Below are positions 1 to 53,159 of a stretch of 64,000 bases of DNA, one piece after another. The translations under genes were made by a program, and so were the position numbers. The stretch is taken from positions 72,912-136,911 of the forward strand of contig CAWEMY010000011.1 in NCBI GenBank assembly GCA_963810305.1, read 5' to 3'. The stretch is from an uncultured Acidobacteriota bacterium. Lineage in GTDB: Bacteria; Acidobacteriota; Vicinamibacteria; Vicinamibacterales; 2-12-FULL-66-21. Position 1 is the first letter of the stretch. Every line of letters begins with the position of its first letter. The notes beneath the pieces were generated by a model that made no database searches, was not told where the DNA came from, and worked only from the letters and a program-made list of their open reading frames with translations.

Positions 1-110
1 CCTCGCGCCGTCATAGCATCCGCGAACGAGGCGGAGCATCGCCCGATGTGGTTAGTGCTCCATCCCTCACGACATCGAACAACTTGCGTGCGAGTTCGGG
101 AGAAATAGCA

Positions 111-3100
111 ATGCTCCATCGAAGTCTGGTTTTCCTGGTGATGTTACTGATGGCTCCGGCCGGCGCATGGGCGCAGCTGACGACGGGAACCATCACCGGA
201 GTAGTCAAGGACAGCAGCGGCGGTTTCGTGCCTGGTGTCACGGTCGTCGTCCAGAACGTCGAGACGGGCGCGGCGCGCACCATCGTGACCGGCGCTGACG
301 GCCGCTACGAGGCGCCAAATCTGCCGGTTGGTAATTACGCCGTCAAGGCGGAGCTGACGGGCTTCCAGACCACCAACCGCAGCGGGATCAACCTGACGGT
401 CGGGCGAACGGCCGTCGTCGACCTGGAACTGAAGGTCGGAAACATGACCGAGGCGGTTGAGGTGAAAGGCGAAGCCGCCCTCCTGGAAACCACGTCGGCC
501 ACCGTGTCCAACCTCGTTGACGCCAAGAGGGTGGTCGAGCTGCCGTTGATCAACCGTGACCTGACGCAGTTGACGTTCCTGCAGCCCGGCGTGTTGAAAA
601 TGCCGACACCCGGCGCCGGCAACTCCGGATCCTTCAGCGGCATGGGTGACAAGCTGAGCGTCGCCGGCGCGCGCGGCAATCAGAACATCTTCATGCTCGA
701 CGGCGTCTCGAACAGCGATCTGTCAGGCAATCCGCAGGGCGCGACGGGCGGCTACGCGGGCGCGGAGACGATCCAGGAGTTCCAGATCATCACCAACAAC
801 TACTCTGCGGAATACCGGAGCCAGGCCGGCGCGATCATCAGCGCCGTGACCAAGTCAGGCACGAACCGGTTCCGTGGGTCGATGTTCGAATTCCACCGCA
901 ACGACGCCCTGGACGCCTCGAACTTCTTCGACAAGAAATTCGGCGTGGAAAAACCCCAATTCGATCGCAACCAGTTTGGCGGGTCGGTCGGCGGACCGAT
1001 CGCCCGCAACCGTACCTTCTTCTTCACCGCCTACGAAGGGCTGCGGCAGGATCAGGGGCAGACGTCCACGATCAACGTTCCCACCATGGCGGCGCGTCAG
1101 GGGATCCTGCCAACCGGCAATGTGACGGTCAATCCGATCGTGGTCCCGTATCTGAACCTGTATCCCGTGCCCGGCGACGGCAACACGGTGGTGAGGGATC
1201 TGAACAACGGTACCGTTCAGCTCGCATATGCAGCGAACGAGAAGATCGATGGCGATCTGTTTACTCTGAAGCTCGATCATCGGTTGAGCGACGGCAAGAA
1301 GGGGATGTTGAGCGGGACCTACAATTACGATGACTCGTCCCGCCAGAATTTTGGCATCCTGCGCAGTGACGCGCTCCTGAACAACAAGCATGCGCTCGCG
1401 ATCAAGCACACCAGCGTGCTGGCGGCGACGACGCTGCTCGACTCCAGCTTCAACTTCAGCGATACCCAGCCGGAAGGGGACGTACCTTTGATGCCGCCGG
1501 ACGACCCGGCGCTGGTGTTCACCCCTGGAAAACCACGCATCGGCGAGCTCATTATTTCCAGCCCGAGCATCAGCATGCTCGGTACCTCCAGGGATCGGGA
1601 CGCGTATTTCCAGCGAAGCTATTCCCTCGGTCAGAATCTGACCTTCCAGCGCGGCCGCCACTCGATGCGAGTCGGCTACGACGCGAGTTTTTACCGCTAC
1701 ATCCAGGACACCTGCTCGAACGGCTGCTTCGGAAGTTACACGTTCCGCACGCTGACAACCTTCCTTCAGAACGTGCCACGGCGGTTCGATGCCCGCCTGC
1801 CGGACGCTGTCAACGTCAAGACGCTGGACCAGGCAATGATCGGCACCTATGTCCAGGACAACTTCAGGATTTCGCCGTCGTTCACGCTGAACTTGGGACT
1901 GCGCTACGAGTACTCGAGCGTTCCGGAAGAACGCAACGGCGCGACATCCCACGTGACGGATCTGACGCTCGAGACCCCGCTGGCGCAACTCAACGAGCCT
2001 GGCGCTCTCTACAAGAATCCGATGGGGAAGGCGTTCAGTCCGCGGGTCGGGTTCGCGTGGGCGCCGGGAGACGCGAAGACCTCCATTCGGGGAGGCTTCG
2101 GCATGTATTACGAGCACCCCGGGTTCTACCACATCCGTACCGCCCTGCAGGAACAACTGCCGTTCAATCAGTTGGGACGCATCGACGACGTCGACGCGAA
2201 CCGGCTGGGGCGTCCGCTCCGCTTCCCGGATGCGTACACCACGCAGGCCGACATGCTCGCCGGCCGGGCGAGCATGCGCGGGTTCCAGTACGACCTCGAC
2301 ACCTCGTACGGCTACCGCTGGAGTCTGACCGCTCAGCGCCAGTTCGGAGCGAACTGGGTCGCGACCGCGGGCTACACGGGATCGCAGTTCATGAATCTCT
2401 GGTGGCAGGGTCTTCCCAATATCAAACAGTGGGAGGGGTACCCCGCGCAGCCGTCAGGTCCGAAGTTCTTCCCGGCAGGCGCGCCGCTGATCAACCCGGA
2501 ACTGGCAGACGCGCGAATTCAGTACTCGAACGCTGATGCCAACTATCACGGCGGATCGTTCAGCCTGCAGAAGCGGTTCAGCGCCGGCCTGCATTTCCAG
2601 GCCTCGTACACCCTGTCAAAGACGGTTGACGACGGGTCCGGGGTCACGAGCGGCGGCGATCGGTTCCCGCAGGGACAGCGCTTCATGTATGCGTGGGACC
2701 TGGAAAAGAGGCACGGGTTGTCGGCGTACGACATCCGCAACAACTTCACTTCGAATTTCACCTATCAGCTGCCATGGGGGCAGACCCTCACGGGAATCAC
2801 GGGGGCGCTCGTCAAAGGATGGCAGGTCAACGGAATCCTGACGCTGATGGACGGCTCGCCGCTCACGGTGTTCGACAGCAACACCGCGCAGGCGGACCGG
2901 ATCGGCCCGACCGAGGGGTTGACCGTGGACCTGGTCCCCGGAGGAAATCCGAACCCGGTGCTGGGCGGATCGGACCGTTATTACGATGTCACCCAGTTCG
3001 CACCGTCGAAGGTGGGTTTCTTCGGAACCCTTCCACGCAACACCTTGATCGGGCCAGGCTTCGCCAGCTTCGATACCTCGGTGTTCAAGACCTTTACGCT

Positions 3101-3281
3101 GAACCAGGGTCGAGAGCTGTCGCTGCGCTTCGAAGTGTTCAACGTGTTCAATCGGGTGAATCTCGGCACGCCTGACATGACCGCGTTCATCGACGGCGTC
3201 GTGAATCCCCAGGCCGGCGAGATTGACAGTACGCGCGGCCCCGCGCGCCAGATGCAAGTGGGCGTGCGGTTCGTTTTCTAG
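111..3281 (+). CDS. TonB-dependent outer-membrane receptor with N-terminal carboxypeptidase-regulatory-like domain
   Basis: ORF 48..3281. The internal ATG at 111 gives signal peptide MLHRSLVFLVMLLMAPAGAWAQ. TGTITGVVKDSSGGFVPGVTVVVQNVETG...GRYEAPNLPVGNY is a CarboxypepD_reg-type signature. The >1000 aa barrel ends in aromatic ...GVRFVF. Confidence 0.85.
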   Translation: MLHRSLVFLVMLLMAPAGAWAQLTTGTITGVVKDSSGGFVPGVTVVVQNVETGAARTIVTGADGRYEAPNLPVGNYAVKAELTGFQTTNRSGINLTVGRTAVVDLELKVGNMTEAVEVKGEAALLETTSATVSNLVDAKRVVELPLINRDLTQLTFLQPGVLKMPTPGAGNSGSFSGMGDKLSVAGARGNQNIFMLDGVSNSDLSGNPQGATGGYAGAETIQEFQIITNNYSAEYRSQAGAIISAVTKSGTNRFRGSMFEFHRNDALDASNFFDKKFGVEKPQFDRNQFGGSVGGPIARNRTFFFTAYEGLRQDQGQTSTINVPTMAARQGILPTGNVTVNPIVVPYLNLYPVPGDGNTVVRDLNNGTVQLAYAANEKIDGDLFTLKLDHRLSDGKKGMLSGTYNYDDSSRQNFGILRSDALLNNKHALAIKHTSVLAATTLLDSSFNFSDTQPEGDVPLMPPDDPALVFTPGKPRIGELIISSPSISMLGTSRDRDAYFQRSYSLGQNLTFQRGRHSMRVGYDASFYRYIQDTCSNGCFGSYTFRTLTTFLQNVPRRFDARLPDAVNVKTLDQAMIGTYVQDNFRISPSFTLNLGLRYEYSSVPEERNGATSHVTDLTLETPLAQLNEPGALYKNPMGKAFSPRVGFAWAPGDAKTSIRGGFGMYYEHPGFYHIRTALQEQLPFNQLGRIDDVDANRLGRPLRFPDAYTTQADMLAGRASMRGFQYDLDTSYGYRWSLTAQRQFGANWVATAGYTGSQFMNLWWQGLPNIKQWEGYPAQPSGPKFFPAGAPLINPELADARIQYSNADANYHGGSFSLQKRFSAGLHFQASYTLSKTVDDGSGVTSGGDRFPQGQRFMYAWDLEKRHGLSAYDIRNNFTSNFTYQLPWGQTLTGITGALVKGWQVNGILTLMDGSPLTVFDSNTAQADRIGPTEGLTVDLVPGGNPNPVLGGSDRYYDVTQFAPSKVGFFGTLPRNTLIGPGFASFDTSVFKTFTLNQGRELSLRFEVFNVFNRVNLGTPDMTAFIDGVVNPQAGEIDSTRGPARQMQVGVRFVF

Positions 3282-3319: not shown

Positions 3320-4663
3320 ATGTCGCCTCCCTTGTCACGTTTGCGCCGGCTCGCACCGGCCATCATCGCTGGTTCGCTGGTTTTGGCTGGCGGGTCGCCG
3401 CGATGGCTATCGGGCACCGATGCCACGAGCCAGCGCGCTGGAACGCTGGTCGCGTTCGAGCCGATGCCGAATCTCTGCGTGATGCCGGCGGCCGAGCAGC
3501 GCGCCGCGATGCGGCAGGAGTATGCGGCGATCCAGGCGGGCCGAGTGGTCAGCGGCGCGGCGACTCCGGAGCGGACGATCAAGGATCCCTATCCCTCCTT
3601 CGCCGGTGTGTCGGTTGATCCGGTTCGGAACGAAGTCGTCTTTACCGACGAGAGCCTGTTTCAGGTCCTGGTCTACGACCGCACGGCGAATACGCCTGCG
3701 GGTGTGACCCCTCCGAAGCGGGTGATCGTCGGCGAGAAGACGAATATCGAGTTTCAGTCCAGTGCCTGGGTGGACCCGAAGACCGGCGAAATCTACGCCG
3801 TGAACAACGACACTCGCGACACCACCGTCGTGTTCGGGGCCGGCGCCACCGGCAATGCGGCACCGGTGCGCAGCATCGCCACGCCGCACGGTTCCTTCGG
3901 GATCGCGGCCGCTGAAGCGCACGACGAAGTGCTGATGACGATTCAGCATGATTCGGCGATCGTCGCCTACAAGAAGAGTGCTGGAGAGGGGGATGCGCCG
4001 GTCCGAATGCTCCAGGGGCTTGCGACCAAGCTGGCCGACCCGCACGGGATCGCGTATGACCCGCAGGAGGACGTGATCTACGTCGCCAATTTCGGCGCGA
4101 CGCACGATGTCAGCGCCAAGGAGGGTGGCGGCCGGGACCGGCGCGGCCGGGGACGGACAAACTGGCCGCTCGGGCGCGACCAGGCAGTGCCGGGTTCCGG
4201 CACGATCAACAAGCCATCGATCAGCGTCCACCGCCGTCTCGCAACCGCCAACGAACCGCCGGTTCGCGTCATCGAGGGACCCGCGGCGCAACTGAACTGG
4301 CCCACTGGGCTGGCCTTCGATCCGGGCAGCCGCGAGCTGTATGTCGCGAACGACATGGGCCCGTCGATTGTGGTGTTCGACGCCGCCGCGAAGGGCGACG
4401 TCGCCCCGAAGAGGGTGCTCAAGGGATCCAGGACCGGTCTGGCGAATCCGACGGCGGTCTCACTCGATCTGAAGAACAACGAGCTGTGGGTGGCGAACTT
4501 CGGCGGTCACTCGGGCGTGGCGTTCGACCTGAAAGCCTCTGGCAACATTGCGCCCAAGAGAATTATCCGCAACGCTCCGCCGAACACGCCGTCGCTGATG
4601 ATCGGCAATCCCGGAGCGGTCGGCTACGACACGAAACGGGAGAACATCCTCGTCCCTAATTGA
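3320..4663 (+). CDS. Secreted beta-propeller repeat protein, portion upstream of an in-frame TGA (candidate selenoprotein, N-part)
   Basis: ORF 3320..4663. Hydrophobic N-terminal leader. Reiterated blade motif (..E[IL]xVAN..[IV]xVF....G[DN]xAPxRxI.G..T.L..P.G[IV]A.D). Ends ..ENILVPN-TGA. Paralog of 37774..39102. Confidence 0.8.
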   Translation: MSPPLSRLRRLAPAIIAGSLVLAGGSPRWLSGTDATSQRAGTLVAFEPMPNLCVMPAAEQRAAMRQEYAAIQAGRVVSGAATPERTIKDPYPSFAGVSVDPVRNEVVFTDESLFQVLVYDRTANTPAGVTPPKRVIVGEKTNIEFQSSAWVDPKTGEIYAVNNDTRDTTVVFGAGATGNAAPVRSIATPHGSFGIAAAEAHDEVLMTIQHDSAIVAYKKSAGEGDAPVRMLQGLATKLADPHGIAYDPQEDVIYVANFGATHDVSAKEGGGRDRRGRGRTNWPLGRDQAVPGSGTINKPSISVHRRLATANEPPVRVIEGPAAQLNWPTGLAFDPGSRELYVANDMGPSIVVFDAAAKGDVAPKRVLKGSRTGLANPTAVSLDLKNNELWVANFGGHSGVAFDLKASGNIAPKRIIRNAPPNTPSLMIGNPGAVGYDTKRENILVPN

Positions 4664-5488
4664 GTCGCTCATCCGCAGATTGCGGTGTTCGCCAGGCTGG
4701 CGGACGGAGGGGCGCAGAGACTGAGGGCAATTGAAGGACAGGCGACGTTGCTTGGCCGGACGATGCACGCGATTGCGTATGACGCGATTCACGACGAGAT
4801 CGTCGTGCCGCAGCAGTTCGGCCAGGCGATTTTGACCTATGCGGGAGACGCGGCCGGGGAGGCCCCCCCCAAGCGGGTGATCATCGGGTCGAAGACGCAA
4901 CTTAGCCGGCCGGACAGGGTGGGGATCGATGCCGTGAACAACGAGATCCTGGTGCCGGAAGACGACAAGGTGCTGGTGTTCCCTCGTGAGGGGCAGGGCA
5001 ACGTCGCGCCGATCCGCATCGTCGGAGGGGCCGAAGCAGGCGTGATGGGGACCGAGGCGGTGGTCGTTGATGCGAAACGCGATCTCATGATCGTCGCGGG
5101 CAACTATCGGCAGGGGGAACGAGCCTCGAATTCACTGATGATCTTCGATCGCACCGCCTCGGGGAACACCAAACCGAAGCGTGTTATTACCGGGATCCCG
5201 GACAACCGTAACATCGCGATCGAGCCGGAAGGAGGATGGATTTTCGTGGCGCTGCCGGGCACTATCGCGCATCCCTACGGACATGTCGGCGTCTGGCACA
5301 TCGACGACAACGGCGAGGTGCCTCCCAAGTTCCGTATCGGCGGCCCGAATGGGTCGCTGCGCATGCCGCGGGGAGTGGTGCTCGACCCGAAGAACCAGTC
5401 GGTGATCGTGTCTGACAAGAAGCTGAACGCCATTCTTACGTTCAGAATTCCGGAGATCTTTACGGCGACGGCCGCGCAACGGCGATGA
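4664..5488 (+). CDS. Continuation of the same beta-propeller protein downstream of the in-frame TGA (the ORF track starts it at GTG 4685)
   Basis: Same reading frame as 3320..4663, with 7 sense codons (VAHPQIA) between the TGA and GTG 4685. The blade motif QIAVFARLADGGAQRLRAIEGQATLL..HAIAYD..DEIVV begins before the GTG. No Shine-Dalgarno ahead of 4685. Paralog of 36850..37752. Confidence 0.7.
   Translation, partial: VAHPQIAVFARLADGGAQRLRAIEGQATLLGRTMHAIAYDAIHDEIVVPQQFGQAILTYAGDAAGEAPPKRVIIGSKTQLSRPDRVGIDAVNNEILVPEDDKVLVFPREGQGNVAPIRIVGGAEAGVMGTEAVVVDAKRDLMIVAGNYRQGERASNSLMIFDRTASGNTKPKRVITGIPDNRNIAIEPEGGWIFVALPGTIAHPYGHVGVWHIDDNGEVPPKFRIGGPNGSLRMPRGVVLDPKNQSVIVSDKKLNAILTFRIPEIFTATAAQRR
4673..4705 (+). 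promoter_or_regulatory. Putative SECIS-like tandem hairpins after TGA 4661-4663
   Basis: Hairpin 1: CCGCA-GAU-UGCGG (4673-4685). Hairpin 2: GUUCGCC-AGGCU-GGCGGAC (4687-4705), a 7 bp stem including one G-U pair. The loop resembles AGGUU of the CUAEP radical SAM hairpin in this window. Covaries with the paralog at 37732-37764. Confidence 0.55.
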
Positions 5489-30238: not shown

Positions 30239-30628
30239 ATGTCACGAACAGTGATCCAGCCCGACTCGCTGAAAGACCCGCGTCCCCGGTACTCCCAGGG
30301 CATCGTGACTGATGGCGGCCGGTTGCTGTTCATCGCTGGTCAGACCGCCGCCGACCGCGACGGCAACGTCGTCGGAAAAAACGACCCCGAAAAGCAGGCG
30401 GAGCAGGTGTTCGCGAATCTGGGCGCCGTTCTGGCAGCGGCGGGGGGGACGTTCGACAATCTGGTGAGTACCACCACGTACCTCACCGACATCAAGTACC
30501 GCGAGGCTTACAACAAGGTGCGTCTCGAGTACTACGCCAACAGCCAGCCGACCAGCACCCTCGTCGTCGTCAAGGCGCTCGGGGGAGAAGATTTCCTGAT
30601 CGAAATCGACGCGATCGCCGTTATTTGA
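30239..30628 (+). CDS. ridA: RidA/YjgF family reactive-intermediate deaminase
   Basis: 129 aa. ..LFIAGQTA.D..GNVVG.., ..TTTYLTDI.., ..PTSTLVVVKAL...FLIEIDAIAV typical of YjgF/RidA. Confidence 0.8.
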   Translation: MSRTVIQPDSLKDPRPRYSQGIVTDGGRLLFIAGQTAADRDGNVVGKNDPEKQAEQVFANLGAVLAAAGGTFDNLVSTTTYLTDIKYREAYNKVRLEYYANSQPTSTLVVVKALGGEDFLIEIDAIAVI

Positions 30629-31769
30629 GACGGTCGCGCTCTTCGGACGCGGCATGCAGGCCGGTGTTGCCTGCAGGCACGCCGGCGTAGATCGACGTCT
30701 GCAAGAGCACCTCTTCGATGTCGCACCATTCGAGCTCGTGTTCGAGACCGGTGCGCACGTGCAGCCGGAACTCTTCCCATCGTCCCATCGCCGCGGTCGT
30801 CGCGAGGACGAGCAGTCGCCGCGTCCGCACGTCCAGCCCGGGGCGCGTCCACACGGTGCCCCACGCGTAGCGCGTGATGAAGTCCTGGAACTCGGGAGTC
30901 GATGCCGTCGACTCGAGCGCTTTGTCCACGTGCGCGTCGCCGAGTACCGCGCGACGGACGCGCAAGCCGGACTCGCGGCCGTCGGTTCTATCCGTCGGCA
31001 GAAATGCGTGCAACGCAGCACTGAATGTCCGCGGCAGTTCCAGATTCGACAAGTGCGCCGTCGCCAGATGGACGACTCGTGGACGGCGGATGCGTGAGGC
31101 GAGGATTTCGCTGTGGCCATTCCACGGCAGAGAGACATCCAGGTCACCGGCGATCACCAGGGTGTGCGGTTTGATATGCCCAAGTTCCGCGGTGAAGTCG
31201 GTATCACGAACGGCGGCGCAGCACCCCGCATAGCCTGTCGGATCGGTTGCCAGCAACACGCGCTTCGCACCAGCGACAGCGGGGGCGCTCGACTGCAGGA
31301 GCCGGGGAGAAAAGAAGCGCCCCATCACCGTGTCGGCGACGGCCGCCATACCGGACTGGAGAACCGTCTGCCGGCGGGTCTCCATCGCATTCGCGTCGGG
31401 CCGGGGAGACGTATTGGCCAGAACGAGCGCAGTGATGCGGTCGGCAGCGTTGAGCGCGAGCCACTGGCCGATCATGCCTCCCAGGGACAGACCGCAGAAG
31501 GCGAAGTGCTCGATGTGCAGACCATCGGCGATCGCCAGCGCGTCGCGGCCAAGCTGCTCGACCGTGTACTCGCCCGCGGTTGCGTCGGACGCGCCGTGCC
31601 CGCGTATGTCGTACCGCAGCACCCGGAAGTGCTGACCGAGATCCGCCGCCTGCGGGTCCCACATCGAGTGGTCCTGCCCAAGTGAATGCGAGAGCATGAC
31701 GACAGGGCGATCATCGCGCCCGTCGAGACGGTAGTAGTGGCGGGCGCCGTCGCTGGTGAAAAATGGCAT
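30621..31769 (-). CDS. pcaL: Fused 3-oxoadipate enol-lactonase / 4-carboxymuconolactone decarboxylase
   Basis: The N-terminal alpha/beta hydrolase half (GLSLGG elbow) is PcaD-like. The C-terminal half ..ITRYAWGTVWTRPGLDVRTRRLLVLA..EEF..H is PcaC/CMD-like. Confidence 0.8.
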   Translation of the reverse strand: MPFFTSDGARHYYRLDGRDDRPVVMLSHSLGQDHSMWDPQAADLGQHFRVLRYDIRGHGASDATAGEYTVEQLGRDALAIADGLHIEHFAFCGLSLGGMIGQWLALNAADRITALVLANTSPRPDANAMETRRQTVLQSGMAAVADTVMGRFFSPRLLQSSAPAVAGAKRVLLATDPTGYAGCCAAVRDTDFTAELGHIKPHTLVIAGDLDVSLPWNGHSEILASRIRRPRVVHLATAHLSNLELPRTFSAALHAFLPTDRTDGRESGLRVRRAVLGDAHVDKALESTASTPEFQDFITRYAWGTVWTRPGLDVRTRRLLVLATTAAMGRWEEFRLHVRTGLEHELEWCDIEEVLLQTSIYAGVPAGNTGLHAASEERDRLK

Positions 31770-31784
31770 TGGTGTTGGCTGCGG

Positions 31785-33125
31785 TCAGTCCTTTTCGCCG
31801 ATGAGACGACGACGGAAGTACTCTGCCGATCCGAGGTACGCCTCGGGCGTGGCGAGAGCGGATAGCACGGCGGCGTCGACGACGGTGCGTGCCTCGGCGT
31901 TCGCGGCCAGCGACTCTGGAAACGTCGTGTGGCCCAGCGCCGCGTCTGCGAGTGCGTCGGAGATGAGGCGCGCAGCTCGCTGACGCCCAACCATCGGCGC
32001 GAGCAGTGTCATCGCACGCTCCGAGAACACCGCGCCACGCGTTGCGTCGATGTTGGCCTTCATCCGTTCAGGGTCGACCGTCAATCCTTCTACCGCGTCC
32101 GCCAGCGCGAGGACCGCTGAGCCGGTCGCCGTCACCGCGGCGACGATGGTTGCGCTCTCCGCGTGCCAGCCGCCCAGCCCACGCTCGTGTTCCTGCACCA
32201 TCCCGGAGAGGAACGCGGAGACCAGCCCCGGCAGTCGATTGGCGGCCGCGAGCACGGTCGCGCATCCGGCGGGGTTGCGTTTGTGCGGCATCGACGAGGA
32301 TCCACCGCCCGGTTCGGACGCCTCACCGACCTCATGCTGCATCAGCAGCGATACATCGCGCGCGATCTTCGCGAGCGTCCCCGCATAGACGCCGCTGGCG
32401 GCGACGAGGGCCGCCAGTCGATCTCTGTGGCCGTGCCACGGGGCCTCGGGTAACGGCAGTTCCAGTTCGGCCGCGAGCGACCTTGCCACATCGGGACCGG
32501 ACGCGCCGAGGGCGGCGAGCGTGCCTGAGGCGCCGCCGAACTGCACGACACAAGCCTCAGCGAAGGCAGCCTTCAATCGCGCATGGCCGCGCGCTGTCGC
32601 TGCGAACCACCCTGCCGCCTTGAGACCGAACGTGATTGGCGGCGCCGGTTGTAACAGCGTTCGACCCAGCATCACCGTCGACTTGTGCGTATCCGACAGC
32701 CGGCGGAGCGCGCGTGCGAGACGCTCGTGATCCGCGTCGATGACCCGCGCAGCCTCTCGAAGGCACAGCACGATCGCGGTGTCGCTCACGTCCTGGCTCG
32801 TCGTTCCCCAGTGGACGAAGCTCGCCGCCGCGGCATCCGTCCCGGCCACACGCGCCGTGAGCATCTCGACGAATGGGATAGCGATGGTGCCGGACGCACG
32901 GGCAGCGCTGGAGATGACCGCGGCATCGAAGTGGCCAGCCTCTGCCGCCCGGCCGATGATCTCTGCCGCATTCAGCGGCACGATCCCTGCCTTGGCCTGC
33001 GCGCGGACGAGCGCCGCTTCGAACCGGCCCATCGCGGCCAGCAGCGCGTCGTCTGAAAAAACGGCGGCGAGCGCTTCGGTCGTTCCCAGACTGTCGAATA
33101 ACCTCACCGCCCGATGCTCAGCCAT
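31785..33125 (-). CDS. pcaB: 3-carboxy-cis,cis-muconate cycloisomerase
   Basis: ORF 31785..33338. ATG 33125 (MAEHRAVRLFDSLGTT..) overlaps the pcaG stop. Fumarate-lyase superfamily signature GSSSMPHKRNP. Confidence 0.85.
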   Translation of the reverse strand: MAEHRAVRLFDSLGTTEALAAVFSDDALLAAMGRFEAALVRAQAKAGIVPLNAAEIIGRAAEAGHFDAAVISSAARASGTIAIPFVEMLTARVAGTDAAAASFVHWGTTSQDVSDTAIVLCLREAARVIDADHERLARALRRLSDTHKSTVMLGRTLLQPAPPITFGLKAAGWFAATARGHARLKAAFAEACVVQFGGASGTLAALGASGPDVARSLAAELELPLPEAPWHGHRDRLAALVAASGVYAGTLAKIARDVSLLMQHEVGEASEPGGGSSSMPHKRNPAGCATVLAAANRLPGLVSAFLSGMVQEHERGLGGWHAESATIVAAVTATGSAVLALADAVEGLTVDPERMKANIDATRGAVFSERAMTLLAPMVGRQRAARLISDALADAALGHTTFPESLAANAEARTVVDAAVLSALATPEAYLGSAEYFRRRLIGEKD

Positions 33126-33636
33126 CGAAGAACACCGTCTCGCGTTCACCCTGGAGCCGCAGCTCGAACACCCAGACCCCCGGCCGCGCGCCATCAGGGT
33201 GCGCGAGCAGCGTTTCGCGGCGATGCTGGGGGACGAGCGCGAGCACCGGATCCGCGTCGATCGCCGGATCGCCCGCGAAGTATATGCGCGTATGCAGGTG
33301 CCGCAGCAGGCCGCGGGCAAAGAGGCAGAGAGAAACATGTGCCGCCTGCCTGCTCGCCATATTCGTGGAGGCGTTCGAGGGTCGGACGGTTTCGAATGTG
33401 CACGTTCCGTCCTCGCGGGTCGGCATCCGTCCGAAGACGCCGTCCTGCGTGACTTCCACCGCCGCGTCGCCTACCGGCTCGCCATCGCCATCGGTCACGC
33501 GAACGACGAGCGTGATCGGATCCCCGTGTGAACGACGCTCGACGATACGGCCGTTCGGCTCGGGCTTGAGTCCCAGGTGAAAAAACGGCCCGACCGTTTG
33601 CGAGGCGGTCGCGATCAGCTCGCCGTTCCCGCTCAC
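33118..33636 (-). CDS. pcaG: Protocatechuate 3,4-dioxygenase alpha subunit
   Basis: GTG 33636 overlaps the pcaH stop (GTGA). TASQTVGPFFHLGL.. and the ..YFAGD.. pattern match the intradiol dioxygenase alpha chain. Confidence 0.8.
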   Translation of the reverse strand: MSGNGELIATASQTVGPFFHLGLKPEPNGRIVERRSHGDPITLVVRVTDGDGEPVGDAAVEVTQDGVFGRMPTREDGTCTFETVRPSNASTNMASRQAAHVSLCLFARGLLRHLHTRIYFAGDPAIDADPVLALVPQHRRETLLAHPDGARPGVWVFELRLQGERETVFFDG

Positions 33637-34328
33637 ACGCGCTCCTCGAAAGGCGTGGCATGCTCTCCACGGACGACGATGTCCCAGGCGAATCCGAGCG
33701 CCCACTCCGGTTGCGTCAGCGACAGATCGAATCGCGACACGAGGCGCTGGCGCGCGCGCTCGTCGTGAACCGACTGCAGCATCGGGTCATACGGGATCAA
33801 CGGATCCTCCGGGAAATACATCTGTGTGACCAGGCGCGTGCGAAAGCTGCTGCCGAAGATCGAGAAGTGAATGTGCGCCGGTCGCCAGGCGTTGTCGTGG
33901 TTGCGCCACGGATACGCCCCTGGCTTGATCGTCGTGAACTTGTAGCATCCTTCGGCGTCCGTGATCGTGCGGCCGGCTCCGGTAAAGTTCGGATCGAGCG
34001 GTGCGGGATGTGCGTCTTTGACGTGGTAGTAGCGTCCCGCGGCATTTGCCTGCCAGACCTCGATGAGCGCATCGCGCACGGGCCGTCCGTCTTCGTCCAC
34101 CACCCGCCCCGCCACCACAATCCGCTGCCCCTGTGGCTCTTCCCGATGCTGTCGCGTCAGGTCATTGTCGGTTTCGCCGATCGGCCACCAGCCATATACG
34201 GGCGCATTCAGATCGGACAAGGACTCCGGCAGGTGAATGGCGGGCTGCGACGGCGCGCGGCGGACGGTCGACTTGTATGCGGGAAAGAGCAGCGGAGGCT
34301 GCGTGCCCGCCAGCTCTGGTCGGATCAT
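33633..34328 (-). CDS. pcaH: Protocatechuate 3,4-dioxygenase beta subunit
   Basis: ATG 34328. ..EVWQANAAGRYYH...GAYPWRNHDNAWRPAHIHFSIFG.. carries the Fe ligands of intradiol dioxygenases. Confidence 0.85.
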   Translation of the reverse strand: MIRPELAGTQPPLLFPAYKSTVRRAPSQPAIHLPESLSDLNAPVYGWWPIGETDNDLTRQHREEPQGQRIVVAGRVVDEDGRPVRDALIEVWQANAAGRYYHVKDAHPAPLDPNFTGAGRTITDAEGCYKFTTIKPGAYPWRNHDNAWRPAHIHFSIFGSSFRTRLVTQMYFPEDPLIPYDPMLQSVHDERARQRLVSRFDLSLTQPEWALGFAWDIVVRGEHATPFEERV

Positions 34329-34338
34329 CGAATCTCCA

Positions 34339-35115
34339 TCAGCCCGCGCTGGCTGTCCCATGGGCGCGCGCCGTGCGGGTCAACAGGTCGCGCAGCGTCG
34401 CCAGCTCGCCGTCGGTCGGCGGCGGTGTTTCGCTGACGGTGCCGCGGAAGCGTACCGGCCAGCCGGTCTTCTCGCGCACCTGCGCCTCCGTGACGTTCGG
34501 GTGTAGCGTGGCCACTTCGAACTCGTTCGTCTCAGGATCCGGACGCATCGTGCAGAGATCGGTCACGATCAGCGTCGGCCCTTCGGTGCGCAGGCCGAGC
34601 GCCTTTCGCTCCCGGCCGGTTGGACCGTGACCGAGCGACGTCTGAAAATCGAGTCGCTCGACGAATGACCGCGCGCCGTGCGGCATGACGATGAACACGC
34701 GCCCGCAATGCACCGCGATCTCGGTGGCCCCGCCGCTGCCCGGCAACCGGACCGCCGGATGTGTGTAATCGCCTACGACGGTGCTGTTCAGATTTCCGTA
34801 CCGGTCCACCTGCGCGCCGCCAAGAAACCCTACGCTGATGCGTCCACCCTGAAGCCAGTACTGGAACATCTCGGGCACGGGCACGGTTGACAGCGCTGTC
34901 TCCGACAATTCTCCGTCGCCGATCGACAGCGGAAGTACGTGGGGCTTGGTCTCGATGGTCCCCGACTCGTAGACGAGCGTCAATCGCGGCGCGTGAGTCA
35001 GGCGAGCGAGGTTACACGCTGCAGATGGGAGCCCGATACCAACAAAACAAATGTCTTCGTTCCGCAATGCCCGCGCGGCCTCGACCGTCATCATTTCGGT
35101 GGCGGTGTAGCTCAC
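34339..35115 (-). CDS. pcaJ: 3-oxoadipate (3-oxoacid) CoA-transferase subunit B
   Basis: GTG 35115 overlaps the pcaI stop (GTGA). VSYTATEMMTVEAARAL..FVGIGLP..ESG.. is CoA-transferase beta-like. Confidence 0.7.
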   Translation of the reverse strand: MSYTATEMMTVEAARALRNEDICFVGIGLPSAACNLARLTHAPRLTLVYESGTIETKPHVLPLSIGDGELSETALSTVPVPEMFQYWLQGGRISVGFLGGAQVDRYGNLNSTVVGDYTHPAVRLPGSGGATEIAVHCGRVFIVMPHGARSFVERLDFQTSLGHGPTGRERKALGLRTEGPTLIVTDLCTMRPDPETNEFEVATLHPNVTEAQVREKTGWPVRFRGTVSETPPPTDGELATLRDLLTRTARAHGTASAG

Positions 35116-35948
35116 GAAGCGATTTCTCCTGCCGACGCACCGACTCGCCGCACGTTGTGGTCGATCCACTGCCGGAACGACTCCCGATCGCGAGAGATCG
35201 CATCCCACCGTGTGTAGAACGTGTTGTCGCGCTGGTAGTAACCATGGGCATACGACGGACGGGCTCCGCCGGGCGCATGGACGATCGCGTTGATCGTCCA
35301 CGACGGAAGCACCACGGCGTTGGTGCCCTCGGTCTGGAGGTCATCGACGATTTCCTCCACGGTTACGATGGCCGATCCGGCCGCGAGAACCGCTTCCTTC
35401 TGGACGCCGACGATGCCGCTGATGAGAACGTTACCGCGGCGATCCGCCTTTTGCGCGTGGATCACGGTGACATCGGGTTTCAGGGCAGGCACTGCGGCGA
35501 GCCGTTCACCCGTGAAGGGGCAGACGATGAACTGGATCCGTGGATTCGCCTGAACAAGGTCGGAGCCGAGATAGCCGCGGAAAACCGCGCACGGCATGCC
35601 CGAAGCGCCAGCCGCGTAGGCCAGGGCCATGGCGGCGTGACTGTGCTCCTCGATCTCCAGAGCGTTGGGCCAGCCATGCTCGACGGCATCGCGGAAACGA
35701 TGCAAGGAGCCAACTCCGGGATTGCCACCCCACGAGAAGACCAGTTTTCGCGCGCAGCCGCAGCCAATCATCTGATCGTAGACAAGATCCGGCGTCATCC
35801 GGATCAGCGTCAGGCCGGTAAGCTCCTGGCGGATGATTTCATGCCCGGCGGCAAACGGAATGAGGTGGGTGAAGCCCTCCAGCGCGACCGACGCACCAGG
35901 CACGACATACCGGGAGATGGCTGTCTGGAGACTGAGGAATTCAGCCAC
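35112..35948 (-). CDS. pcaI: 3-oxoadipate (3-oxoacid) CoA-transferase subunit A
   Basis: GASVALEGFTHLIPFAAGHEIIRQ.. family-I CoA-transferase alpha-like. Heads the pca operon. Confidence 0.7.
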   Translation of the reverse strand: MAEFLSLQTAISRYVVPGASVALEGFTHLIPFAAGHEIIRQELTGLTLIRMTPDLVYDQMIGCGCARKLVFSWGGNPGVGSLHRFRDAVEHGWPNALEIEEHSHAAMALAYAAGASGMPCAVFRGYLGSDLVQANPRIQFIVCPFTGERLAAVPALKPDVTVIHAQKADRRGNVLISGIVGVQKEAVLAAGSAIVTVEEIVDDLQTEGTNAVVLPSWTINAIVHAPGGARPSYAHGYYQRDNTFYTRWDAISRDRESFRQWIDHNVRRVGASAGEIAS

Positions 35949-35966
35949 GGACCCTGACGGCGGCGC

Positions 35967-36761
35967 TTAGAGGCAGGCGCTTGCCGGCACGCGCCGTCGG
36001 CTCACGGCAGGCTTGCGAGAGCGCATGTCGCCGTCTCCGTCGTCGCCGCTCTGCATCTGCTGAGCGAGGGTTTCGCCGATGCCGGTCTGGACCTTGCCAA
36101 TATGTTCCAGCATGAGCTGCTGCGCCGCGACCTCGTCATGACGTTCGATCGCTTCAAAAATCGCGCGATGGAATCGGCAGATGCCCTCCTTGACAGGTCG
36201 AGGGGTGTCGATCGCTGTGACGATCTCGAGGATCAGATCCGAGAGCGAATTCATCAGCGTTTGCAGCGGCAGGTTGCCCGCGCATTCGGCGACAGCGCGG
36301 TGGAACAGCAGGCTGTGCGGTCGGAAATGCCCGTTCCGTGCAAGCGCGGCTTCTTGACGTTCGAGCACCAGCCTCAGCTTGGTGATGTCTTCAGCCGTTG
36401 CCCGGCGTGCGGCGAGACGCGCGATCGGAGGCTCGATCAGGAGCCGTGCCTCCGTCAGTTCCTCGTGCGAGGTCCGGCCAAGCTTGAGGACGAGCGAGAG
36501 GGAACGCTGTACGGCGTCGTGCCCCATTTCGTTGATGAACGCCCCGCCGTCAGCGCCGCGGCGGATGGCCAGGAGTCCGAGTTCTTCGAGCGATCGGTAG
36601 GCTTCGCGGACAGAGACCCGGCTCGTCTTGTATCGACGCGCCATCTCCCGCTCAGCCGGCAGCTTTTCGCCGGCGTTGAGCTTACCGCTTGAAATCTGGC
36701 GCTTGATCCGGTCGGCCAGGTTGTCGGAAACGCGAGCAGTGCGCGGTGGTCGCTGCGGCAT
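35967..36761 (-). CDS. GntR/FadR-family transcriptional regulator
   Basis: wHTH KLPAEREMARRYKTSRVSVREAYRSLEELGLL plus a C-terminal FCD-type helical domain. Confidence 0.85.
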   Translation of the reverse strand: MPQRPPRTARVSDNLADRIKRQISSGKLNAGEKLPAEREMARRYKTSRVSVREAYRSLEELGLLAIRRGADGGAFINEMGHDAVQRSLSLVLKLGRTSHEELTEARLLIEPPIARLAARRATAEDITKLRLVLERQEAALARNGHFRPHSLLFHRAVAECAGNLPLQTLMNSLSDLILEIVTAIDTPRPVKEGICRFHRAIFEAIERHDEVAAQQLMLEHIGKVQTGIGETLAQQMQSGDDGDGDMRSRKPAVSRRRVPASACL

Positions 36762-36849: not shown

Positions 36850-37773
36850 TTAGCGCGACCCTGACGACAGGGTTGCCCACGCGTCCTTAAATAACTGCGG
36901 CAGGTGATACGCGAAATAACCGCTGCTGCCGCCGTCAATTGCGTAGATCACGCCGCGTTTCGGGTCGAGCGCGATGCCGCCGGGCGAGATCAAACGGCTC
37001 GCGGGCCCCTGAATCAGTGCGCGGGGCGCGATGTCACCGTTGTCATTGATATCCCAGACGCCGACGAAGCCCGGGCCAACCCGGCCGCTCGACGACTCCT
37101 GTGCCTTGGTGAACTCTTCTTCCGGCCGCGGCTTATCGGCACGGTACGGCTCGAGCTGCTTCTCCTGCATGCTCTGCTGGGCCAGGAAGATCCTGCCGCT
37201 TTCGGGATCCACTGCCACCTGCCGGAAGTGGGCCAGCCCGGTGTTTCGGCCGGAGATGATCGTCCGCGGAACGGCATTTCCGTTGTCGGTTCTATTGAAC
37301 GTGATGATGCCGGTGGTCGAGGACGACCGGCTCGCCGCGATGATCACGTTGCGGACCGGGTCCACCGCGACGCCGACCACGTCGAGCAGCTTCGTGTTGT
37401 CGCCGTAGAGGACACGCTTCGGTGCGACGTCCCCTTGAGCCTTGCGGTCGAAGATGAGAATGGCGCGCGCCGTCGTGTCGCCGACCATGATCTCGTCGTG
37501 GATCGGATCGACAGCGATCGTCTGCGGTCGGATCAGCCGGGTCTTCGAGCCCTGGATGACGCGCAGCGGCGCTTCCGAGCCGTTCGCGCCGCCGCGGAAC
37601 ACCAGGATCGCGCCGCCGAGCGCGACCGGCATCGACATCTCATCGTTCACTTCGTCGTAGGCGACGCCGTGTATCGTGCGGCTCAGCGATGTGCGCTGTC
37701 CTTCAATGACCCGTTGCGGTGCGACCAATCCGTTTGCCAACCTGGCAAACACCGAGACTCTCGGTACGCTGAC
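36850..37773 (-). CDS. Beta-propeller repeat protein, portion downstream of the in-frame TGA (paralog of 4664..5488)
   Basis: ORF 36850..37752, plus 7 in-frame sense codons (VSVPRVS) back to TGA 37774-37776. MFARLANGLVAPQRVIEGQRTSL.. aligns with the locus 1 C-part. Confidence 0.7.
   Translation of the reverse strand, partial: VSVPRVSVFARLANGLVAPQRVIEGQRTSLSRTIHGVAYDEVNDEMSMPVALGGAILVFRGGANGSEAPLRVIQGSKTRLIRPQTIAVDPIHDEIMVGDTTARAILIFDRKAQGDVAPKRVLYGDNTKLLDVVGVAVDPVRNVIIAASRSSSTTGIITFNRTDNGNAVPRTIISGRNTGLAHFRQVAVDPESGRIFLAQQSMQEKQLEPYRADKPRPEEEFTKAQESSSGRVGPGFVGVWDINDNGDIAPRALIQGPASRLISPGGIALDPKRGVIYAIDGGSSGYFAYHLPQLFKDAWATLSSGSR
37732..37764 (-). promoter_or_regulatory. Putative SECIS-like tandem hairpins after TGA 37776-37774
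   Basis: Minus-strand RNA: CCGAG-AGU-CUCGG then GUUUGCC-AGGUU-GGCAAAC, at the same offsets from the TGA as in locus 1. Stem positions differ from locus 1 in a base-pair-preserving way. Confidence 0.55.
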
Positions 37774-39102
37774 TCAATTGGGGACGATCAGCGCGTCGCG
37801 CTTGGTGTCGTACGCCGCCGCGGCGGCGTTGGTGAAGGTCAGTGCGGGCGTGCCGGGCGGCGCGTTCCGGACGATGCGTTTCGGGCCTGCGTTGCCGCTG
37901 GCGTCACGATCGAAAATCAGCGCGGTGTGATCCGAGTAATTGGCCACCCAGATCTCGTTGCGCGTGGCGTCTACCTTGACGTCCACCGGACCGACGATTC
38001 CGGTCCGGTCACCTCGAAGAACGCGCTTCGGCGCGACATCGCCTTCCGCCGTGCGTTGGAAGATGTGGATTGAGTTGTCGCCGTAGTTGGCGACCAGGAT
38101 CTCGTCGCGCTGCGCATCGACGTCGAGGCCCATCGGCCAGTTCAGACCTGTGCGGCTGCCGCTGATCGAGCGGACGGGTTTCGTGTTGCCTTCGGCCGAC
38201 GCCGCGAAGATGCGGATAGACGGAGGCTCGAAGCGGCCCGGCTCATACACCTGTGGCGTCTTCGACAGAGGGTCGTAGGGGCTGTACGGACGAAGCTCGG
38301 TCCAGTTGCCATGGTTGGCGACGACCAGCTCTTTCCGGTTGTCGTCGTATGCAATGCCGTGCGGATCCGCCAGACCGGTGTCGTAACCGCGGAGCGACCG
38401 AACCGGCGGGTCCATGTTCTGCGCGCCACGGCGGTAGAAGACTATGCCGCTCAACTGCTGAACCGAGACCGCGATCTCGTCGCGCGCCATACTGAGCGCA
38501 ATGCCCCACGACTGGTGCGGGGTCTCGAGGCCTCGTACTGGACGCACGGCGCCGGTCTGGTCGTAGCCAAAGATGACCACGCCGCCGCCATCGTTGTTGG
38601 CGGTGTAGACTTCCTTCCGTTCCGGATCGACAGCGACGCCTGCGATGAAGCCGATCCCGGCGTCGGGTCCCATGATGTGTGTCTGTGGATCGGTGATCGC
38701 CGGGGTATTGCCCCCCGCCGTCGTGGAGTACGAGAGCACACCCGACAGGCTCGAGTCGCTGAAGAATGCCCGCCCGGCCGCCGGGTCGATCGCCAGGCCG
38801 CCAAACGTGGGGTACGGATCGAACACGGTGCGCGCCGGCATGACATCGACGACGGCAGACTCCTCCAGCGGCCATTCGTACTTACTCTTGCGTACGACCT
38901 TGTCCGTGAGCCGCCCGCCGGCGCCGCCACCGCGAGTTTGCCGGAAGGCCGATCCTTCCGGCGGCATCAGACACATCTCGGATTCCGCCGGCGAGCGCAG
39001 CAGCGCCTTCAACGCGTCCGCCTCGACGAGCTGCTGATGGCGTCCGCCAGTCATCACCAGCGTGATGACGGCGCCGGCACAAAATAGAAGTCGCTTTCGC
39101 AT
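37774..39102 (-). CDS. Secreted beta-propeller repeat protein, portion upstream of the in-frame TGA (paralog of 3320..4663)
   Basis: Signal-like MRKRLLFCAGAVITLVMTGG. Same blade motif (LVANYGDNSIHIFQRTAEGDVAPKRVL.., WVANYSDHTALIFDRDASGNAGPKRIV..). Ends ..DALIVPN-TGA. Confidence 0.8.
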   Translation of the reverse strand: MRKRLLFCAGAVITLVMTGGRHQQLVEADALKALLRSPAESEMCLMPPEGSAFRQTRGGGAGGRLTDKVVRKSKYEWPLEESAVVDVMPARTVFDPYPTFGGLAIDPAAGRAFFSDSSLSGVLSYSTTAGGNTPAITDPQTHIMGPDAGIGFIAGVAVDPERKEVYTANNDGGGVVIFGYDQTGAVRPVRGLETPHQSWGIALSMARDEIAVSVQQLSGIVFYRRGAQNMDPPVRSLRGYDTGLADPHGIAYDDNRKELVVANHGNWTELRPYSPYDPLSKTPQVYEPGRFEPPSIRIFAASAEGNTKPVRSISGSRTGLNWPMGLDVDAQRDEILVANYGDNSIHIFQRTAEGDVAPKRVLRGDRTGIVGPVDVKVDATRNEIWVANYSDHTALIFDRDASGNAGPKRIVRNAPPGTPALTFTNAAAAAYDTKRDALIVPN

Positions 39103-40194: not shown

Positions 40195-40767
40195 CTAGCG
40201 GTTCCCGAAGTTGACCTTCGGCGCCTGCTGCGCGTCCGCCGGAGCGGCGAAGTAGGGATACTCGCCGAACCCGAAGATCTTGGCCGTCACGTTCGAGGGG
40301 AACCGCCGGCGCGTCGTGTTGTACTCCTGGATTTTTTCGTTGTAGCGGCCGCGTGCGACCGCGATCCGGTTCTCGGTGCCCGACAACTCGTCCATCAACC
40401 GCTGGAAGTTCACGTCGGACTTGAGGTTCGGATAGTTCTCCACAACGACGAGCAGGCGCGCGAGCGCGGAGGACTGTTCATTGGCCGCCGCGATCGTCTC
40501 TTCCGGCGTCTTGGCACCGGCGAGGCGCGCGCGGGAGTCGGCAATCCGCGTGAATATCTCTTTCTCCTGCGCCGCATAACCCTTGACCGTCTCGACGAGA
40601 TTCGGGATCAGATCGTTGCGTCGCAGCAGCTGGTTCTGCACCTCCCCCCACGACGCCTTGATCGCCTCTTCCTGCGTGGTGAACTTGTTGTACGAACAAC
40701 CCGACAACCCTGTCACCACGAGCGCGGCAACGACGAAATTCAGAATCACTCCTGCACGTTTCATCAT
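40195..40767 (-). CDS. lemA: LemA family protein
   Basis: ATGATG at 40767 preceded by AAGGAGA. Lipoprotein-like leader ..VVTGLSGCSYN. WGEVQNQLLRRNDLIPNLVETVKGYA.. is the LemA core. Confidence 0.85.
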   Translation of the reverse strand: MMKRAGVILNFVVAALVVTGLSGCSYNKFTTQEEAIKASWGEVQNQLLRRNDLIPNLVETVKGYAAQEKEIFTRIADSRARLAGAKTPEETIAAANEQSSALARLLVVVENYPNLKSDVNFQRLMDELSGTENRIAVARGRYNEKIQEYNTTRRRFPSNVTAKIFGFGEYPYFAAPADAQQAPKVNFGNR

Positions 40768-40776
40768 CGTCTCCTT

Positions 40777-40846
40777 AGCACGTAGCACGTAGCACGTAGC
40801 ACGTAGCACGTAGCACGTAGCACGTCGCACGTCGCACGTGGCACGT
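40777..40846. repeat. Tandem heptamer array (AGCACGT x7, CGCACGT x2, GGCACGT x1)
   Basis: Counted directly. Lies between the TPM gene stop and the lemA RBS. Reverse complement of the array at 43372-43430. Confidence 0.95.
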
Positions 40847-40852
40847 GGTTTG

Positions 40853-41665
40853 TCACCATCCGCCAGAGGCGCCGCCACCACCAGACCGGCCACCGCCAAA
40901 TCCGCCGAACCCGCCACCGCCGCCGCCGCCGAATCCACCTCCGCCGAAGCCACCGAAGCCGCCGCCATAGCCGCCACCGAAGCCCCCGCCGAACGGCCCG
41001 ACCCCGCTCGACCAGCCGAACGGCCCGCCCCAGCGCCGGCGCCGCCGCCGGCCTCCGCCACGGCTCATCAGGATGAAGATGATGATCATCATCACGATCA
41101 TCCCGAGCGGGGGCCCCCGCCGCGTGCGGCGCTGCACCGGCGCGGTCTCACGCGGCACGTCCTGGAGGCGCACGCCGCGGCCCTCGGCGATGCGATTGAT
41201 GATGGCGGTGGTGCCGCTGACGAGTCCCGGACCGTAGCGCCCGTCGCGGAAGTGGGGCGCCATTCGCTCGCGGATGATCTGCCCGGCGAAGCCATCGGTG
41301 ACGAACCCTTCGAGATCGTAGCCAACCTCGATGCCGATCTTCCGTTCGGCCGCGGCGACAGCGATCAGAAGTCCGTTGTCTTTGCCCTTCTTGCCGATGC
41401 CGCGCCCGGCATTCTCGAACATCTTCACTTTGAACTCGTCCATGTCGGCGAATCCTTCGATGTTCGGGACGGTGACGACCGCGACGACGTCGCCAGTGGC
41501 GGACATCAAGGTGTGGATCCGGCGTTCGAGCTCCGCCTTGCTTGCCGGATCGATGATGTTCGCGACATCGTTGACCGCGCCGGTCAGCTGCGGCGTCGGC
41601 GGTTGCGCGAAGATCTCACCGGCGCCCGCGATGAGACAGCAGGCAAGAACAAGGCTTCGGGTCAT
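40853..41665 (-). CDS. TPM-domain protein (YgcG-like) with Gly-rich C-terminal tail
   Basis: LTGAVNDVANIIDP..., ..GLLIAVAAAERKIGIEVGYDLEG is the TPM_phosphatase core. A TM helix is followed by a GGGFGG-rich tail. Classic pairing with lemA. Confidence 0.8.
   Translation of the reverse strand: MTRSLVLACCLIAGAGEIFAQPPTPQLTGAVNDVANIIDPASKAELERRIHTLMSATGDVVAVVTVPNIEGFADMDEFKVKMFENAGRGIGKKGKDNGLLIAVAAAERKIGIEVGYDLEGFVTDGFAGQIIRERMAPHFRDGRYGPGLVSGTTAIINRIAEGRGVRLQDVPRETAPVQRRTRRGPPLGMIVMMIIIFILMSRGGGRRRRRRWGGPFGWSSGVGPFGGGFGGGYGGGFGGFGGGGFGGGGGGGFGGFGGGRSGGGGASGGW

Positions 41666-51620: not shown

Positions 51621-53159
<1,539 letters not shown>

Follow-up and report, generated by a model that had tools for sequence, protein, structure and literature searches.

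A candidate family of selenocysteine-containing beta-propeller proteins in Acidobacteriota with two hairpins downstream of an in-frame UGA

We analysed a stretch of 64,000 nucleotides from an uncultured Acidobacteriota bacterium (GenBank assembly GCA_963810305.1, contig CAWEMY010000011.1, positions 72,912 to 136,911 of the forward strand). This whole stretch is called the window, and all positions refer to it. On its minus strand lies a gene, here locus 2, which is interrupted by a single in-frame TGA, and a paralogue, locus 1, on the plus strand carries a TGA at the equivalent codon. Judging from the translations, the homologues and the folding of the RNA, locus 2, and likewise locus 1, is almost certainly one gene coding for a selenocysteine-containing protein. 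The selenocysteine (Sec) would very probably be inserted with the help of a hairpin of the SECIS type (selenocysteine insertion sequence), which is accompanied here by an extra hairpin on its 5′ side.

Two paralogous genes with a TGA in the same column

The translation of locus 2 from 39102 to 36850 is a single open frame. Its sole interruption is the TGA at 37776-37774, which stands in the context ..YDTKRDALIVPN-TGA-VSVPRVS-VFARLANG.. Gene callers cut the gene into the two open reading frames (ORFs) 37774..39102 and 36850..37752, and the GTG "start" of the second ORF is the Val codon of VFARL. The GC content at third codon positions (GC3) is 0.80 on the 5′ side of the TGA and 0.82 on the 3′ side.

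Locus 1 was found via the hairpin pattern described below. Its context is ..YDTKRENILVPN-TGA-VAHPQIA-VFARLADG.., with ..ENILVPN before the TGA. The proteins of the two loci can be aligned over their full length with 38% identity, and the two TGA codons fall into the same column. Orthologues of the locus 1 type (VAHPQIAVFAR) with the TGA are also present in two of the genome loci that we fetched (L011 and L013).

A preliminary description of this DNA, made from the letters and a list of ORFs, had already proposed these ORFs, the TGA at 37774-37776 and the corresponding TGA of the paralogue, and translation and alignment place all of them exactly there. It had further called the seven codons after the TGA a spacer. 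The seven in-frame codons are real, but they are no spacer: they are translated and conserved throughout the family as V-[SAT]-x-P-[RQ]-[IV]-x.

The homologous codon is TGA or a cysteine codon

The DNA sample consisted of 75 loci from species genomes of GTDB and 80 metagenome loci. Nearly all of the former carry an Acidobacteriota label (Vicinamibacterales, Terriglobia, Blastocatellia, Bryobacteraceae). The codon was compared at 168 homologous sites in genomes and metagenomes; it is TGA at 150 of them, TGC at 15, TGT at 2 and TCA at 1. TAA or TAG, whose appearance in homologues the preliminary description had named as an observation that would speak against recoding, occurs at none of the 168 sites.

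The relatives that a search with the fused protein brought up fall into two classes. Proteins of about 440 residues (439-442) cover 59% of the query and end at the TGA, and full-length proteins have 720-770 residues. All full-length homologues carry a cysteine at the site (..LVPN-C-VS.PR..). In a search of 1.84 billion cluster representatives, the cysteine was kept also in homologues with less than 50% identity; 23 of the top 150 representatives (50%-identity clusters) stop exactly at ..VPN. The exchange of Sec and Cys between homologues is the classic signature of a selenoprotein. Because a cysteine stands at this site in every full-length homologue, we interpret the recoding as insertion of selenocysteine. 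A reassignment of TGA in the genetic code was rejected, as TGA is the normal stop of 15 of the 28 confident genes in the window.

Two covarying hairpins follow the UGA

In both window loci two hairpins are found at identical offsets, +12..+24 (hairpin 1) and +26..+44 (hairpin 2) from the U of the UGA. The sequences and offsets had been given in the preliminary description, and we find them as written. Also correct are the changes it listed between the two loci. In hairpin 2 a C-G pair of locus 1 is U-A in locus 2, and a U-G pair is likewise U-A; the differences in the stem of hairpin 1 amount to two double changes. Folded alone, hairpin 2 of locus 2 gives -9.0 kcal/mol with z = -3.0, and 1 of 200 shuffles is as good; a separate energy calculation gives -10.5 kcal/mol. 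For hairpin 2 of locus 1 folded alone, the values are -11.8 kcal/mol and z = -3.6, and none of 200 shuffles is as good. The 57-nt contexts of the two loci give weaker z values (-1.7 and -2.1), and hairpin 2 lies within the minimum free energy (MFE) fold. Rfam returned no meaningful match, neither with gathering thresholds on the whole window nor with permissive E-values on 37650-37850.

The strongest evidence against a chance structure comes from 99 distinct homologous sequences of 50 nt on the 3′ side of the TGA, which align without indels. In the stem of hairpin 2, 98% of the cells in this alignment are paired, and the loops are AGGCU (38), AGGUU (30), AGGUC (14), AGGAU (7) and CG[UG]GN (10). 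One pair of this stem involves third codon positions only and joins Phe UUU/UUC with Ala GCA/GCG. It is U-A in 88 sequences, C-G in 11 and mismatched in none, and the C-G state is spread over several sequence-distinct groups. In hairpin 1, the Arg codon family AGR/CGN tracks the opposite Ser UCG or Ala GCG codon (of 65 sequences, 33 have C-G at pair 16-22 and 26 have A-U). Pair 30-42, also counted in 65 sequences, is U-A in 55, C-G in 10 and never unpaired. Stem changes that break the pairing, the second observation said beforehand to speak against recoding, are thus not what is seen, as the variable pairs 16-22 and 30-42 keep pairing.

For the whole structure, 95.9% of the cells are paired versus 90.4% in shuffled alignments, and none of 500 shuffles reaches the observed value. 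The covariation score is 0.174 versus 0.102 in the shuffles, and controls slid along the alignment pair to 34-49%. RNAalifold recovers both hairpins independently; applied to 90-nt segments, it detected neither a conserved lower stem nor a three-way junction that would enclose them.

The Cys forms of the gene provide a natural negative control. They code for similar peptides, use other synonymous codons and have lost both folds. In the Sec forms compared with the Cys forms, the synonymous choice is AGG in 90% versus 12%, GCC in 99% versus 19% and UUU in 89% versus 31%. The mean energy of hairpin 2 is -10.4 kcal/mol in Sec forms versus -4.4 kcal/mol in Cys forms, and that of hairpin 1 is -7.1 versus -1.2 kcal/mol. 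Taken with the exclusive use of TGA among the stop codons, the pairing kept in varying stems and the cysteine of the full-length homologues, the proposal of a recoding signal instead of a chance stop is well supported.

Two of the fetched sequences, L004:5329 and L033:5074, look like recent conversions from Sec to Cys. In L004 (TGT) hairpin 1 is still intact and hairpin 2 is partly degraded, and L033 (TGC) is separated from its Sec-form neighbours by few stem-breaking changes. Such sequences would be useful natural intermediates in studies of how a SECIS element decays.

Hairpin 2 resembles a bacterial SECIS element

The published consensus model of the bacterial SECIS (bSECIS) asks for an upper stem of 4-16 bp capped by an apical loop of 3-9 nt, for a G as the first or second loop nucleotide, usually with G or U after it, for an apical loop that lies 16-37 nt from the UGA, and for an MFE of -7.5 kcal/mol or lower (PMC13188914). 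Hairpin 2 agrees with the model in all four respects. Its stem is 7 bp long with a 5-nt loop; in the MFE fold the stem has 8 bp and the loop 3 nt. The loop G is present in 99 of 99 sequences. The loop lies 30 nt from the UGA (31 nt with the 3-nt loop), and no sequence has an indel in between. Both window loci fold below -7.5 kcal/mol, as does the family mean. We therefore regard hairpin 2 as the probable SelB-binding stem-loop. The loop of hairpin 1 is often without G (AAU, CAU), and for this reason hairpin 1 is read as an accessory element.

We suggest that the recoding proceeds in the following steps. A ribosome which arrives at the UGA 37776-37774 would meet two adjacent mRNA hairpins just downstream. 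Hairpin 2, with a stem of 7-9 bp and a G-G-Y loop 30-31 nt past the UGA, would act as the bacterial SECIS and recruit SelB-GTP-Sec-tRNA(Sec). Sec would then be inserted and termination avoided, as the sequence, the covariation and the fit to the model suggest. The 5 bp of hairpin 1 co-evolve with this element and would probably set the spacing or slow the ribosome, which is the weaker part of the proposal. The recoding mechanism itself is ordinary, being the known bacterial one.

Compared with genes that carry a bSECIS in their coding region, of which E. coli fdhF is the prototype (PMC13188914), the likeness is considerable. Shared are the in-frame UGA, a stem-loop just downstream within the coding region, the short apical loop in which a G precedes G or U, the loop distance of 16-37 nt and the existence of Cys homologues. 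In contrast to the one long bulged stem of the fdhF type, there are two adjacent covarying hairpins here, both of which are lost in Cys forms. Moreover, the protein family is another one and the SelB-type hairpin starts 23 nt past the UGA. The Sec stands outside a CxxU/UxxC redox motif, and the fold is not thioredoxin-like.

A second selenoprotein gene in the window

A gene for a radical SAM protein with a CUAEP tail lies 17 kb from locus 2. Its TGA at 54614-54616 falls exactly into the C-U-A-E-P tail, and the frame continues past it as ..WYC-U-AEPNAEQVALL up to a second TGA. Since a catalogued selenoprotein gene with a TGA at the known Sec position is found in the same window, the host appears to decode Sec. 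Acidobacteriota are among the bacteria listed as Sec-utilising (PMC12013277). A scan of the window for in-frame TGA candidates gave none beyond the radical SAM gene and the two propeller genes.

The radical SAM gene shares with locus 2 the genome, the TGA-encoded Sec and a downstream hairpin, whose GGU loop resembles the A-GGU-U of locus 2. It differs in that its protein is unrelated, its Sec is located 12 residues from the C-terminus, and the loop of its single hairpin lies 20 nt past the UGA versus 31 nt in locus 2. ARAGORN detected no tRNA of any kind in the window, and the 155 fetched loci likewise gave no tRNA-Sec.

The predicted protein is a tandem beta-propeller

The product of locus 2 would be an exported protein of about 750 residues with two six-bladed beta-propellers of the NHL type. 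Pfam recognises propeller repeats of the models NHL (PF01436), Lactonase (PF10282) and SGL (PF08450) in the family protein. NHL scores 41-45 bits against a gathering cut-off of 20 and Lactonase 30-32 bits against 21.7, which places the protein in the NHL-repeat superfamily. An AlphaFold2 model was made of P0001, a Cys homologue with 71% identity to locus 2. This model has 12 four-stranded blades, with a mean predicted local distance difference test score (pLDDT) of 84.9 and a predicted template modelling score (pTM) of 0.84. At its N-terminus a helix (residues 2-17) is followed by a disordered arm (residues 17-71, pLDDT <50). The N-terminal segment of the locus 2 protein is likely to act as a signal peptide, and export is predicted.

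Read from the alignment, Sec443 or its Cys counterpart would be located in a tight turn between the second and the third strand of blade 7. There it seems to replace the aromatic or His residue of the VAN-[YFH]-G turns in other blades. Apart from Sec, the predicted mature protein has a single cysteine, Cys44, in the N-terminal arm. A cysteine in this arm is present in 144 of 151 homologues, the core of the first propeller is free of cysteine in 105 of 151, and the region past the Sec site in 128 of 139. This conservation suggests that the Sec is a functional residue which, most likely, could form a redox or metal-binding centre together with the single cysteine of the arm.

Blade motifs and fold are shared with the NHL and lactonase propellers (PF01436, PF10282, PF08450; labelled "YncE" or "6-phosphogluconolactonase" by JGI). 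Different are the 12 tandem blades, the invariant Sec/Cys in blade 7 and the conserved cysteine of the arm. None of the solved propeller structures is close. The hits of a Foldseek search against the PDB were all generic double propellers of the WD40, YWTD or NHL type with a template modelling score of ~0.3, and a sequence search of the PDB gave TRIM-NHL repeats only. The JGI labels were rejected as identities, as the scores are far below the cut-offs of the NCBIfam equivalog models (YncE 15.7 versus 400; 6-phosphogluconolactonase/Pgl 14.5-18.1 versus 370). Methanethiol oxidase or selenium-binding protein (MtoX, SELENBP1) was rejected for the same reason; the score with NF052453 is 12.3 bits versus 650 (E 0.042) and reflects generic propeller similarity only.

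Other readings of the UGA

Three other explanations have to be weighed, which we consider unlikely even when taken together. First, a near-cognate or suppressor tRNA (Trp, Cys, Arg) could read the UGA, and the hairpins would stimulate this read-through without SelB or Sec. In other systems, read-through can be favoured by a stable structure immediately 3′ of the stop codon, hairpin 1 is placed where a structure that stalls the ribosome would sit, and no Sec machinery is seen in the window. However, the aligned residue is always Cys, as expected for Sec, and hairpin 2 has the G-[GU] loop and the spacing of a bSECIS in all of the 99 sequences. Furthermore, TGA is the sole stop codon used at the site, and the radical SAM gene with its TGA at a known Sec position lies nearby. 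In our view such a read-through is very unlikely.

It is also highly improbable that the TGA is a true stop and that the two halves are separate polypeptides, be it of a split gene with coupling or re-initiation or of a decaying pseudogene. Gene callers and GenBank do give the 5′ half as a separate "hypothetical protein" of 439-442 residues, and a GUG stands immediately after the UGA in about half of the related loci. In both window loci, however, the codon after the UGA is GUC, which is no start codon. The seven codons in front of the mechanical "start" are conserved as protein, and no locus has a stop or an indel there. A true stop would hardly be the same codon at 150 sites and never TAA or TAG. 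The Cys forms are contiguous, and the two paralogues have retained the TGA over their divergence to 38% identity. Finally, the Sec site is located inside blade 7 of a continuous propeller array, so that a split at this position would cut a blade.

That the hairpins are a mere by-product of the conserved peptide PR[IV][SA].FAR.AN and have no function at the RNA level can be practically dismissed: 8 of the 12 stem pairs do involve first or second codon positions of conserved residues and two stem pairs never vary, but the third-position pair Phe3-Ala3 covaries perfectly, the Arg AGR/CGN choice tracks the opposite Ser/Ala codon, the rare codons UUU, GCA, AGG and AGA are fixed despite a genome GC3 of ~0.8, and the Cys forms with their similar peptides use other codons and lose the folds.

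Several points nevertheless weigh against selenocysteine insertion as we propose it and against the function we suggest for the protein. Sec at position 443 is deduced from sequence, covariation and the fit to the model. The conserved peptide F-A-R-x-A-N forces part of the stem conservation, and the shuffle control for pairing and covariation ignores phylogeny. Hairpin 2 begins 23 nt past the UGA, farther away than the minimal element of E. coli fdhF with its 11 nt, though still within the 16-37 nt of the model. In neither the 64-kb window nor the fetched loci did we see selA, selB, selC or selD, so that the Sec competence of the host rests on the second selenoprotein gene and on the record for the phylum. 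On the side of the protein, no match establishes a function, the Foldseek hits being generic double propellers only. The partnership of Cys and Sec is hypothetical, and the link to transporters and aromatic compounds (see below) is suggested by gene context.

Novelty and significance of the family

The May 2026 catalogue of 119 prokaryotic selenoprotein families (PMC13188914, Table 1 therein) lists neither a propeller, NHL or lactonase family nor a PNUV motif. Deep-Sep does not have the family among its new ones either, no model of NCBIfam release 20.0 is specific for it (best E-value 0.001), and we found no description in the open-access full-text literature. Members in GenBank such as MPY90019.1, HVL69716.1 and MBA2305069.1 are truncated "hypothetical proteins". 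Thus, the family appears to be new, the recoding mechanism is known and the two-hairpin element is slightly unusual.

We lean towards a more far-reaching picture, although with clear reservation. The propellers may constitute an unrecognised selenoprotein family, possibly the most expanded one in soil Acidobacteriota. Its members would be exported 12-blade propellers with a bipartite two-hairpin element, with Sec and Cys forms in a ratio of ~5-10:1 and with several paralogues per genome. Sec and the cysteine of the N-terminal arm would form a centre which operates alongside TonB-dependent uptake, perhaps of lignin-derived aromatics. If this is true, current estimates of the selenoproteomes of Acidobacteria and of the selenium demand in soil are considerably too low, and database entries are truncated by the thousands. 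Recognising the Sec codon would repair hundreds to thousands of Acidobacteriota genes that are now split into a "hypothetical protein" of 440 residues and an orphan ORF of 300 residues.

Almost all bacterial selenoproteins known to us are oxidoreductases that have a thioredoxin fold or a metal cofactor, and most of them come from anaerobes. A Sec-dominated, exported beta-propeller family with multiple copies in abundant soil bacteria would widen this structural and ecological picture and raise the apparent selenium requirement of Acidobacteria. With its clean covariation at synonymous sites and the Cys forms as negative controls, the two-hairpin element is in addition a good training and test case for predictors of bacterial SECIS elements.

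Gene neighbourhood and further features of the window

Table 1. Positions of the propeller genes, their hairpins and selected further features in the window
Feature	Position	Strand	Description
Locus 2	36850..39102	minus	751 codons (750 residues and TAA stop); predicted gene of an exported tandem beta-propeller selenoprotein
Signal-peptide-like N-terminal segment, locus 2	39037..39102	minus	MRKRLLFCAGAVITLVMTGG..; read from the translation; modelled as helix 2-17
Cys44, locus 2	38971..38973	minus	motif EM-C-LMP; predicted disordered N-terminal arm; only Cys of the mature protein besides Sec
Putative Sec-UGA, locus 2	37774..37776	minus	residue 443; motif IVPN-U-VSVPR
Hairpin 1, locus 2	37752..37764	minus	CCGAG-AGU-CUCGG; 5 bp; -6.5 kcal/mol folded alone
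Hairpin 2, locus 2	37732..37750	minus	GUUUGCC-AGGUU-GGCAAAC; apical loop 37739-37743
Locus 1 (paralogue)	3320..5488	plus	723 codons
Putative Sec-UGA, locus 1	4661..4663	plus	LVPN-U-VAHPQ
Hairpin 1, locus 1	4673..4685	plus	CCGCA-GAU-UGCGG; -6.0 kcal/mol
Hairpin 2, locus 1	4687..4705	plus	GUUCGCC-AGGCU-GGCGGAC; SECIS-like stem-loop
TonB-dependent receptor-like outer-membrane protein	48..3281	plus	CarboxypepD_reg and outer-membrane beta-barrel; Pfam E 3e-162; 38 nt upstream of locus 1
CUAEP-tail radical SAM selenoprotein gene	53693-54652	plus	NCBIfam NF040546 (CUAEP/CCAEP-tail radical SAM (seleno)protein) over 53693-54649; E 1.7e-137
Hairpin of the radical SAM gene	54631-54645	plus	AGAGCA-GGU-UGCUCU; 6 bp; GGU loop; not the MFE fold of its 39-nt context

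Among the conserved neighbours of the propeller genes, the family of TonB-dependent receptor-like proteins is met most often, being adjacent in 31 of 77 genome loci. In ~14 of the 77, locus 1 among these, the receptor-like gene lies directly upstream on the same strand. Directly downstream of locus 2 we find a gene for a GntR/FCD regulator and a cluster for the catabolism of aromatic compounds of the protocatechuate/beta-ketoadipate type (30621-36761, minus strand, and 24075-25736, plus strand). The genes of the cluster code for an enol-lactonase/CMD fusion, a Lyase_1 cycloisomerase, the beta subunit of protocatechuate 3,4-dioxygenase, a CoA-transferase and an FAD-dependent aromatic-ring hydroxylase. 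Neighbours at other loci are LigXa-like Rieske oxygenases, class II aldolases, amidohydrolase_2 proteins and Zn-dependent dehydrogenases. From this context, the protein is probably periplasmic or located at the cell surface, alongside TonB-dependent uptake systems. There are weak hints of a role in the uptake or processing of aromatic compounds.

Two copies of the family are present in the window and three or four in single metagenome-assembled genomes. The genome loci L003, L011, L013, L042, L044, L045 and L071 each hold a tandem pair of family members in the same orientation, and every copy has a TGA and hairpins of its own. In L011 and L013 the locus-1-type gene is paired with a gene of the VSVPRIS type. 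Given these tandem pairs at other loci, the paralogy seen in the window is old and recurrent.

The N-terminal 146 profile positions of the radical SAM protein are encoded upstream in another frame (~53225-53700, plus strand; MEGLSVLLISTYDMGRQPFG..), which points to a frameshift or an assembly error in the GC-rich repetitive stretch near 53650-53690. On the opposite strand the ORF of a POT transporter (51621-53411) probably has an over-extended 5′ end. Between the radical SAM gene and an ATP-grasp gene we note a 19-nt inverted repeat (54677-54695 and 54727-54745, 95% complementary) with CCTAAC-like units, which could be a terminator or an element resembling a repetitive extragenic palindrome.

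An amidohydrolase gene (5485-7430, plus strand) is apparently split. ORF 5485-6093 covers positions 3-77 of Amidohydro_3, and ORF 6204-7430, which is in another frame, covers positions 150-471. The split could reflect a frameshift, an assembly error or a pseudogene, and the pattern of TGA recoding is not seen in this gene. Finally, about ten tandem copies of the heptamer TAGCACG (96% matches) are found at 40776-40846, where they overlap the 5′ part of a LemA-family ORF (40195-41061, minus strand).

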